Program-made: the position numbers and the translations under genes | Shown here: positions 30,997 through 31,554 of the stretch, in pieces | Position numbering within the stretch: the stretch's first letter is position 1 | How the letters are laid out: each line of letters starts with the position of its first letter | Sequence record: PP430152.1 | Direction: 5' to 3' (one strand) | DNA: 40,995 bases | Source of the DNA: Enterobacteria phage FtMidnight | Notes under the pieces: model-generated | Seen by the model: only the letters and a program-made list of their open reading frames with translations | Databases searched by the model: none | Told to the model about the DNA's origin: nothing

Positions 30997-31554
30997 TTAA
31001 CCGTTGTCAACACCTTTTTCTAAAATTTTTCGTTCTTCTTCAAGGTTGCGATTGTTCGCGCTTTCTTCAGTGAATTTTTCAGGAAAGCGGCGGCGAAGCT
31101 TTGCAATGTTGATTTGTTGCGCTTCTTCAAAGGTTGAATCAAGCGCCCGCAAGGCCAGCGCGTCATACCAAAGACCATCGCCAATTTCTTCAATGGCGTT
31201 GACGGTATCAAACGGCTTGCCTTCCTTTGCGACCGCCTGCAAGGCTTCCAGCAATTCAGCGGCTTCAGTCACCTTGCCAATGATTCCATGAATCAGATTG
31301 ATAGCCGCGCCGTCTTGTTCGGCATTGGGCGAAAGCCAAGCGGGCAAGCTTTCAAGGGTTTGTTGGCCTTCAGGTGCGGTAATGTGCGGAAACTCTTTAC
31401 CGTAAAACAGTGCCTTTTTGATGCAGTCAAGGTTTTCGCTTGCGGAAATGATAGCGTCTGAAACGGTGATGAAAAGCGCCAGCGGTACGCGCTCGCCATA
31501 GAACTTGTCAGACGCTGTTTTGTGGGCTTCTTCGATATAATCAAGCTTTTTCAT
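30997..31554 (-). CDS. MazG-like nucleoside triphosphate pyrophosphohydrolase (putative)
   Basis: 185 aa; RBS GAAGGTG; EEIGDGLWYDALAL and NIAKLRRRFPEKF resemble the all-alpha NTP-PPase (MazG/HisE-like) pattern. Confidence 0.45.
   Translation of the reverse strand: MKKLDYIEEAHKTASDKFYGERVPLALFITVSDAIISASENLDCIKKALFYGKEFPHITAPEGQQTLESLPAWLSPNAEQDGAAINLIHGIIGKVTEAAELLEALQAVAKEGKPFDTVNAIEEIGDGLWYDALALRALDSTFEEAQQINIAKLRRRFPEKFTEESANNRNLEEERKILEKGVDNG

Follow-up and report, generated by a model that had tools for sequence, protein, structure and literature searches.

Introduction

Genes for a MazG-like pyrophosphatase and for a deaminase are already annotated at matching positions in the genomes of Pseudomonas phage vB_Pae-Kakheti25 (gp36 and gp55), of DLP1/DLP2 and of the Lokivirus Escherichia phage Shy. 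The structure 7FH4 is that of the bifunctional dCMP/dCTP deaminase of chlorovirus PBCV-1, a virus of 40% guanine plus cytosine (GC) content on a host of 66%, during whose infection the dCTP:dTTP ratio shifts from ~4.5 to 0.6. The MazG protein of cyanophage S-PM2 is a pyrophosphohydrolase of deoxynucleoside triphosphates (dNTPs) with a preference for dGTP/dCTP and no hydrolysis of ppGpp; its proposed role is the recycling of GC-rich host nucleotides. Here, we analysed the two corresponding genes (Table 1) of the 40,995-bp sequence PP430152.1 from Enterobacteria phage FtMidnight, the whole of which is called the window below. An earlier sequence-only reading had suggested that this pyrophosphatase and deaminase might form a toolkit excluding a canonical dNTP, with a modified pool or modified DNA as the outcome, and had kept plain auxiliary metabolism as a fallback. 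The evidence favours the fallback and speaks for phage DNA that is normal, not chemically modified. We consider it likely that the two genes, conserved and independent of each other, belong to the auxiliary nucleotide metabolism of a Kakheti25-type siphovirus making canonical DNA, and that they serve pool balancing and (d)NTP hydrolysis or clean-up.

Identity of the two gene products

The MazG-like protein of 185 aa matches the PHROG family phrog_229 ('MazG-like pyrophosphatase') with E=1e-52. The Pfam family MazG (PF03819) reaches 19.4 bits over residues 96-160, and since this score is under the gathering cut-off of 22 bits, the protein is, as far as profiles tell, a member of a divergent subfamily of the all-alpha NTP pyrophosphohydrolase superfamily. 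When a profile built from 44 homologues was searched against the PDB sequences, nine matches were obtained at E<=1 (best E=4e-4), all of them all-alpha NTP pyrophosphohydrolases; they include the Thermotoga MazG-related protein 2yxh, E. coli MazG (3cra), YpjD, integron iMazG, 4qgp and DCTPP1/RS21-C6. The metal-binding motif read from the sequence, E97-x2-E100-x2-E103 followed after 18 residues by E122-E123-x2-D126, fits the superfamily pattern ExxE(xxE)...(12-28 aa)...EExxD on adjacent helices. Residues E97, E100, E122, E123 and D126 are invariant in the 44 homologues, down to 42% identity, and E103 is conserved in at least 90% of them. The protein carries a conserved N-terminal extension, is 63% identical to Kakheti25 gp36, and its AlphaFold (AF2) model is confidently all-helical with a predicted local distance difference test (pLDDT) score of 89.6. 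In GenBank, the gene is labelled 'toxin-antitoxin protein' in relatives, as it is in one paper; the profile evidence gives this label no support.

The deaminase scores 82.4 bits against the Pfam family dCMP_cyt_deam_1 (PF00383; cut-off 25) and E=9e-51 against phrog_174, dCMP deaminase. Its zinc-binding and catalytic motifs are intact (H73-A-E75 and P100-C101-x2-C104), and the surrounding letters, HAEANAI at 73-79 and PCVKCARLIAAAGIKRV at 100-116, align with the motifs of human DCTD and of the PBCV-1 enzyme. The closest solved relative is PDB 7fh4 (E=3e-23), and the ranking 7fh4, 2w4l, 2hvv, 4p9c and 1vq2 (E 3e-23 to 1e-10) corresponds to the enzymes of PBCV-1, human (DCTD, 3e-18), S. mutans, cyanophage S-TIM5 and T4 (Cd). 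TadA (2b3j, E=1e-4) ranks well behind these mononucleotide deaminases, and the NCBIfam TadA model gives 17.9 bits against a cut-off of 150. The ComEB equivalog model TIGR02571 is not reached either (55.8 bits, cut-off 219), and on these scores the protein is related to ComEB, not a ComEB equivalog. It is 69% identical to Kakheti25 gp55. In several relatives (at least two), the orthologue is annotated 'tRNA-specific adenosine deaminase' (TadA), a label that the profile evidence does not support.

Profile searches (PHROG and PDB for both proteins, Pfam for the deaminase) thus confirm both families named by the sequence-only reading, an all-alpha NTP pyrophosphohydrolase and a cytidine deaminase (CDA)-fold deaminase. 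The gene identities are established here together with the intact catalytic motifs, the synteny, the independent distribution of the two genes and the absence of modification enzymes described below.

Genomic context and inheritance

All open reading frames (ORFs) of the window were compared by local tblastn with the complete genome of Kakheti25 (Septimatrevirus, NC_017864). Collinearity is gene by gene over the full length, from the small terminase gene at the start to the lysis cassette in the last part, with identities of 81% for TerL, 78% for the portal, 83% for the major capsid protein, 80% for the DNA polymerase, 84% for the helicase and 75% for the primase. Because of this end-to-end collinearity, the window is, by sequence comparison, the complete genome of a distinct member of the Kakheti25 lineage, and a gene absent from the window is therefore absent from the phage. 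Nucleotide identity is ~74%, over the conserved parts only, and the window is the most AT-rich member of the group (46.4% GC vs 53.8% in Kakheti25). Near-identical genomes are present in two public metagenome-derived collections (Logan SRR10769897_4643, 41,027 bp, and IMG/VR UViG_3300028601_000007, 40,879 bp), with identities of 98-99% for the MazG-like protein, 95-98% for the deaminase and 99.6% for the polymerase; the phage type has thus been sampled repeatedly. The best matches of the tail or central hub protein are just 47% identical, all from Pseudomonas-group phages, and gave no host inference.

The two genes are not a physical pair: 6.2 kb lie between them, and they stand on opposite strands and in different transcription units. 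The MazG-like gene is the promoter-proximal gene of a leftward replication and recombination operon, in which it is followed by genes for DUF7173, a Sak4-like AAA_24 protein, a DUF669 single-stranded DNA-binding protein (SSB), a DUF3268 zinc-finger ORF, a Cas4-domain exonuclease, a DEAD/ResIII helicase, a clamp-like processivity factor and the DNA polymerase. This order is common to the window, Kakheti25, Shy and Acinetobacter phage IMEAB3. The deaminase gene lies among small ORFs in the rightward operon, between the helix-turn-helix (HTH) and primase genes and the lysis genes, and it overlaps the small ORFs on either side, by 19 and 14 nt.

The distribution of the genes was assessed in 80 viral-contig loci fetched by the MazG profile, with flanks of up to 10 kb on each side; close relatives were those with MazG at least 50% identical and an adjacent primase gene, and counts cover loci with enough flank. 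The deaminase is present in 10 of 13 close MazG-bearing relatives and in none of 27 more distant loci (0/27), and a ThyA homologue lies inside the fetched flanks in just 2 of the 80. IMEAB3 has the MazG gene and no deaminase, and the host genera represented in a phage database are largely different for the MazG subfamily and for the deaminase. On account of these patterns, the MazG-like gene is best placed in the core of a widespread replication module, the deaminase gene being a clade-level accessory, and the comparison indicates that the two are inherited independently. Both are long-term residents rather than recent imports, because they are as depleted in GAG/CTC, which the lineage forbids, as the remaining genome (3.6 per kb in the MazG-like gene and 4.3 in the deaminase gene, compared to 3.8 in the rest).

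Absence of modification enzymes

Pfam/PHROG scans were run on every plausible ORF of the window and, in the non-structural half, also on alternative ORFs of at least ~100 aa that overlap them. In these ORFs, the scans found no ThyA, ThyX, dUTPase or ribonucleotide reductase (RNR), no DNA methyltransferase, DpdA/TGT or PurZ, and no deoxynucleoside monophosphate (dNMP) kinase or glycosyltransferase, with small unassigned ORFs remaining. The ThyA family PF00303 had zero matches in any window ORF, and tblastn of the window with E. coli ThyA and Dut gave chance-level matches alone (E=0.66 and 0.38). The earlier observation that the phage has no thymidylate synthase, dUTPase or RNR is hereby borne out. 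A regular expression for ThyX (RHRx7S) applied to six-frame translations was discarded, as it matched about half of all loci and its lone match in the window spans stop codons. All ORFs of at least 200 aa are accounted for except one of 243 aa; phmmer searches of this ORF, DUF7173 and DUF7303 against PDB sequences gave no matches, which neither shows nor excludes a hidden nucleotide enzyme.

To our knowledge, every known nucleotide-level route of pyrimidine modification needs a ThyA-family enzyme. Among metavirome contigs, those with modified cytosine have a dCMP deaminase and a ThyA homologue no more than 3 kb apart in 70% of cases, the unmodified ones in 6%, and because of this difference a deaminase without ThyA points towards canonical DNA. 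Digests of the DNA of relatives are available: DLP1/DLP2 DNA is cut by EcoRI, PA-56 DNA by EcoRI and HindIII, Loki digests with BmtI, BsrGI, BclI and SspI agreed with the in-silico prediction, and the restriction profile of Ab26 was ordinary in the very study in which YuA-like phages stood out as resistant.

Avoidance of restriction sites

Among the 64 hexamer palindromes, 47 have zero copies in the window; in Markov-chain simulations, 1.6-9.4 are absent on average and 13 at most. GATC is the sole absent tetramer, and CCWGG is absent as well. The number of absent hexamer palindromes is 43 in Kakheti25, 38 in Shy and 34 in IMEAB3, whereas T7, a classic avoider, has 19 and phiKMV 23, so that avoidance in the lineage is about twice as strong as in these two phages. 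It is lineage-wide, extending over the window, Kakheti25, Shy, IMEAB3, the two near-identical contigs and ~20 metagenomic relatives, and each genome keeps its own abundant 'allowed' palindromes (TTGCAA 77, AAGCTT 61 and CAATTG 44 in the window; TTCGAA 78, AAGCTT 62 and CGCGCG 57 in Kakheti25). According to Rusinov et al., a protective modification removes the selection for site avoidance, and hydroxymethylase-encoding coliphages avoid 2.4% of host sites vs 55.8% in related phages without the enzyme. The extreme site avoidance of the window genome therefore implies DNA that is exposed to restriction, which argues against a protective base modification.

Because ThyA, DpdA, PurZ and methyltransferase genes are lacking, the relatives' digests are normal and site avoidance is extreme, we regard the phage DNA as probably canonical. 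The suggestion that the two enzymes exclude a canonical dNTP is not supported, in view of these points (no ThyA, digests, site avoidance) and of the independent inheritance of the genes. The dCMP deaminase of T4, for its part, serves dTTP supply, not dCTP exclusion.

A further feature of the lineage is that the trinucleotide GAG/CTC is nearly banned on both strands: Kakheti25 has 26 copies of it and the window 155, where ~1,280 are expected. Its density is 0.6-7 per kb in the lineage vs ~33 per kb in phiKMV and T7, two phages whose hosts are also those of lineage members. Codon use in the window is 867 GAA to 43 GAG, CCTC, CTCC, AGAG, GAGA and GAGC are nearly absent, and several of the leftover copies belong to Shine-Dalgarno-like GGAG/GAGG motifs a short way ahead of start codons. 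Relative to Kakheti25, the window additionally purges TCGA, CGAC/GTCG and GGAC/GTCC. We know of no restriction site as short as 3 bases. The idea that the ban gives self-immunity to a host-shredding phage nuclease, combined with dNMP recycling, was not adopted, the window retaining 155 GAG/CTC. No description of the palindrome and GAG/CTC avoidance in this lineage was found in the searchable literature, and the avoidance of palindromes, GATC, CCWGG and GAG/CTC throughout the lineage may deserve more attention than the two genes themselves.

Proposed role of the two enzymes

For the substrates, the direction of flux and the reliance on host ThyA, we infer from relatives the following scheme. 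The deaminase would convert dCMP to dUMP and possibly, as its closest solved relative does, dCTP to dUTP. Because the phage has no thymidylate synthase, host ThyA would be needed to turn this dUMP into dTMP, whereby dC nucleotides would be spent to raise dTTP. In many Gram-negative hosts, dUMP comes mainly from the action of dCTP deaminase and Dut and a dCMP deaminase is lacking, and a phage dCMP deaminase would therefore open a direct salvage of dCMP from host DNA. Such a gain of dTTP would help a phage to build a more AT-rich genome out of GC-rich host DNA and pools. The MazG-like enzyme, the earliest product of the replication operon, would hydrolyse (d)NTPs to (d)NMP and pyrophosphate, its likeliest substrates being surplus dCTP/dGTP and/or non-canonical dNTPs such as dUTP; if acting on dUTP, it would stand in for the missing dUTPase. 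Together, the two enzymes could form a dCTP to dCMP to dUMP shunt, in which neither would need the other.

The GC mismatch invoked here fits part of the lineage: Septimatreviruses have 53-54% GC and their hosts ~66.6%, Kakheti25 agrees with the idea, and so does IMEAB3, whose Acinetobacter host is AT-rich and whose genome lacks the deaminase. A number of points weigh against this scheme. Shy (53.7% GC) keeps the deaminase on E. coli; three of the 13 close metagenomic relatives are without it, with GC contents overlapping those of relatives that have it; and for the window genome itself (46.4% GC) a mismatch would be conjectural. The GC-mismatch logic is thus not universal. Fold searches with the model of the MazG-like protein gave weak or generic helical matches and did not independently recover MazG structures, and the substrates proposed for the MazG subfamily and the deaminase clade are drawn from distant relatives. 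Finally, since MazG is kept where the deaminase is absent (IMEAB3 and all 27 distant loci), its main role may be unrelated to dC-to-dT flux.

In itself, the finding matters little, as it re-identifies genes that are annotated and discussed in the Septimatrevirus and Lokivirus literature, in dozens of genomes, and as the modified-DNA reading is contradicted. Its wider use would be that a deaminase plus pyrophosphatase without ThyA is a marker of canonical-DNA pool balancing via host ThyA, not of DNA modification. The MazG subfamily, moreover, is the conserved first gene of a widespread siphovirus replication module and is often mis-described as a toxin-antitoxin or ppGpp enzyme, a recurrent annotation problem.

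Alternative explanations

The MazG-like enzyme might instead remove a regulatory or defence-derived nucleotide, such as guanosine tetra- or pentaphosphate ((p)ppGpp), whose removal would sustain the metabolism of the host, or toxic nucleotides from host defences, with the deaminase serving a separate purpose. A role in ppGpp removal is the one usually quoted in papers on Septimatrevirus and Lokivirus phages, and it would suit a core replication-module gene that many lineages have without the deaminase and that is the first to be transcribed from the leftward putative promoter. However, the one tested phage MazG, that of S-PM2, neither bound nor hydrolysed (p)ppGpp, the subfamily has no documented defence-related activity, and a gene expressed together with those for polymerase, helicase and SSB could just as well serve dNTP supply or sanitation, so that we hold this explanation to be unlikely. 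The substrate of the deaminase could also be mis-assigned, the enzyme being triphosphate-only, selective for 5-methyl-dC like mSCD-B5, or a tRNA adenosine deaminase. mSCD-B5 is a 154-aa 'dCMP deaminase' that has 7FH4 as its closest PDB match, too, and acts on 5mdCTP/5hmdCTP alone; selectivity for 5-methylcytosine (5mC) is polyphyletic and has no simple sequence marker; and two relatives' deaminases are annotated TadA. Yet 5mC-selective deaminases adjoin dCMP-methylating ThyA homologues, of which the window has none, and similarity to TadA is marginal (17.9 bits vs 150; E=1e-4 for 2b3j vs 1e-23 to 1e-11 for dCMP deaminases), which makes a mis-assignment of this kind quite improbable.

A third explanation returns to non-canonical DNA: the pair would deplete a canonical dNTP and give a non-canonical virion base, for example dU for dT, with the MazG-like enzyme acting as dTTPase and the deaminase supplying dUTP. 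It draws on the ability of the closest solved deaminase to turn dCTP into dUTP, on the lack of an encoded dUTPase or ThyA, and on the fact that sequence data cannot tell U from T. Nevertheless, we give it very little credence: the scans of the window hold no ThyA-family, DpdA, PurZ, kinase or glycosyltransferase gene; a deaminase without ThyA is typical of unmodified contigs; relatives' DNA is cut by EcoRI, HindIII, BmtI, BsrGI, BclI and SspI, with Loki patterns matching prediction; YuA-like phages were flagged as resistant but Ab26, in the same study, was not; extreme site avoidance implies exposure to restriction; and the uracil-DNA phages known so far are jumbo myoviruses, a quite different kind of phage. 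Global substitution is very unlikely given the restriction data of relatives and the site avoidance. On low-level or partial substitution in the window phage, an unusually AT-rich member, both lines of evidence bear less strongly. That the MazG-like enzyme and a bifunctional deaminase, with no dUTPase or ThyA, bias the pool to the point where virion DNA carries a pool-derived non-canonical pyrimidine (e.g. partial dU for dT) strikes us as extremely improbable, and if true it would be without precedent among small siphoviruses. Auxiliary pool balancing and clean-up in a phage with canonical DNA remains the explanation that we prefer.

Other features of the window

Table 1 Positions, in window numbering, of the two genes, of associated promoters and operon, and of other features.
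Feature	Position	Strand	Basis or match
MazG-like all-alpha NTP pyrophosphohydrolase gene, 185 aa	30997..31554	-	phrog_229, PDB profile matches, invariant motif
dCMP-type (possibly dCMP/dCTP) zinc deaminase gene, 153 aa	37766..38227	+	PF00383, phrog_174, zinc motifs
Putative sigma-70-like promoter, TTGACA-17-TATGAT (11/12), ending 36 nt upstream of MazG start codon	31590..31618	-	consensus match alone
Putative divergent sigma-70-like promoter of rightward operon, TTGACA-17-TAGGAT with TG	31625..31653	+	consensus match alone
Remaining leftward operon downstream of MazG	22191..30982	-	Pfam/PHROG scans
DNA polymerase region	22191-25418	-	Pfam family B, marginal (18.4 bits)
DUF3268 zinc-finger ORF	28387-29334	-	domain at residues 152-266, E=3e-34
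NrS-1-like primase-polymerase/DUF3987 helicase fusion, 778 aa	31866-34202	+	
Accessory region	34200-36560		
243-aa ORF	35632-36363	+	phrog_29311
172-aa protein	36567-37085	+	phrog_824
Endolysin	40039-40476	+	Phage_lysozyme (PF00959)
93-aa ORF	7810-8091	+	

The replication machinery of the phage is unusual: the polymerase is paired with its own clamp-like processivity factor (phrog_947), and the primase is fused to a helicase. The 243-aa ORF resembles the C-terminal ~90 residues of this primase (phrog_3022 positions 687-775) and, by this resemblance, may be a partial paralogue or decoy of it. The accessory region has a lower GC content (~0.43) and no counterpart in Kakheti25. The DUF3268 ORF lies between the Cas4-like exonuclease and SSB genes; because its tblastn similarity to Kakheti25 spans ~167 aa, where the record annotates just the 53-aa gp32, the Kakheti25 reference is probably under-annotated at this point. 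The 172-aa protein has weak VRR-NUC and Holliday-junction-resolvase-like matches, and the label 'Vsr endonuclease' given to its orthologue in the DLP1/DLP2 paper is unsupported by profile evidence. The 93-aa ORF, located within the head-tail connector block, has its match not at the syntenic position of Kakheti25 but at 40488-40718, which is gp53 of the right-arm early/lysis region, and thus appears to be a relocated small gene. The endolysin is without a Kakheti25 homologue, a different enzyme serving in the lysis cassette of that phage; such a swap of the lysis module is consistent with a different host.

Comparison with known systems

Among phages with modified DNA, those of the uracil type (PBS2/AR9), whose genes for UDG and dUTPase inhibitors are small and escape recognition, are an unlikely parallel in view of the relatives' digests, the site avoidance and the type of phage. 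With the 2-aminoadenine (PurZ/MazZ/DatZ) and 7-deazaguanine (DpdA, preQ0) systems, the window shares a loose counterpart of the MazG-like component only; domains of a PurZ adenylosuccinate-synthetase homologue, of DpdA/TGT or of preQ0 genes occur in no scanned window ORF. T4, with its gp56 dCTPase/dUTPase and Cd dCMP deaminase, formally resembles the dCTP to dCMP to dUMP shunt, but adds the gp42 dCMP hydroxymethylase, gp1 kinase, Td and glucosyltransferases to replace dC, none of which is present in the window. 5mC-selective phage deaminases of the mSCD-B5 type share fold, size and the closest PDB match 7FH4 with the window deaminase, whereas they adjoin dCMP-methylating ThyA homologues in phages with 5mC-DNA, a partner that the window does not have.

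The MazG of S-PM2 is, like the MazG-like protein, a phage all-alpha NTP pyrophosphohydrolase, although of a different subfamily, the window protein having 185 aa, a conserved N-terminal extension and a marginal match to Pfam MazG. The PBCV-1 deaminase A596R (7FH4) is a small single-domain protein like that of the window (142 vs 153 aa, E=3e-23) and a viral enzyme that raises dTTP for an AT-richer genome in a GC-rich host. Its dCTP activity would be only a possibility for the window enzyme. PBCV-1, furthermore, encodes its own dUTPase, ThyX and RNR, whereas the window phage encodes none and would for this reason have to rely on its host.

The closest likeness is to the Septimatreviruses. These relatives also have no ThyA in their genomes and, apart from the higher GC content and the sequence divergence of Kakheti25 given above, they (Kakheti25 gp36/gp55 and the orthologues in PA73, Ab26, DLP1/DLP2 and PA-56) have the same two genes as the window, agreeing with it in position, operon and neighbouring genes.

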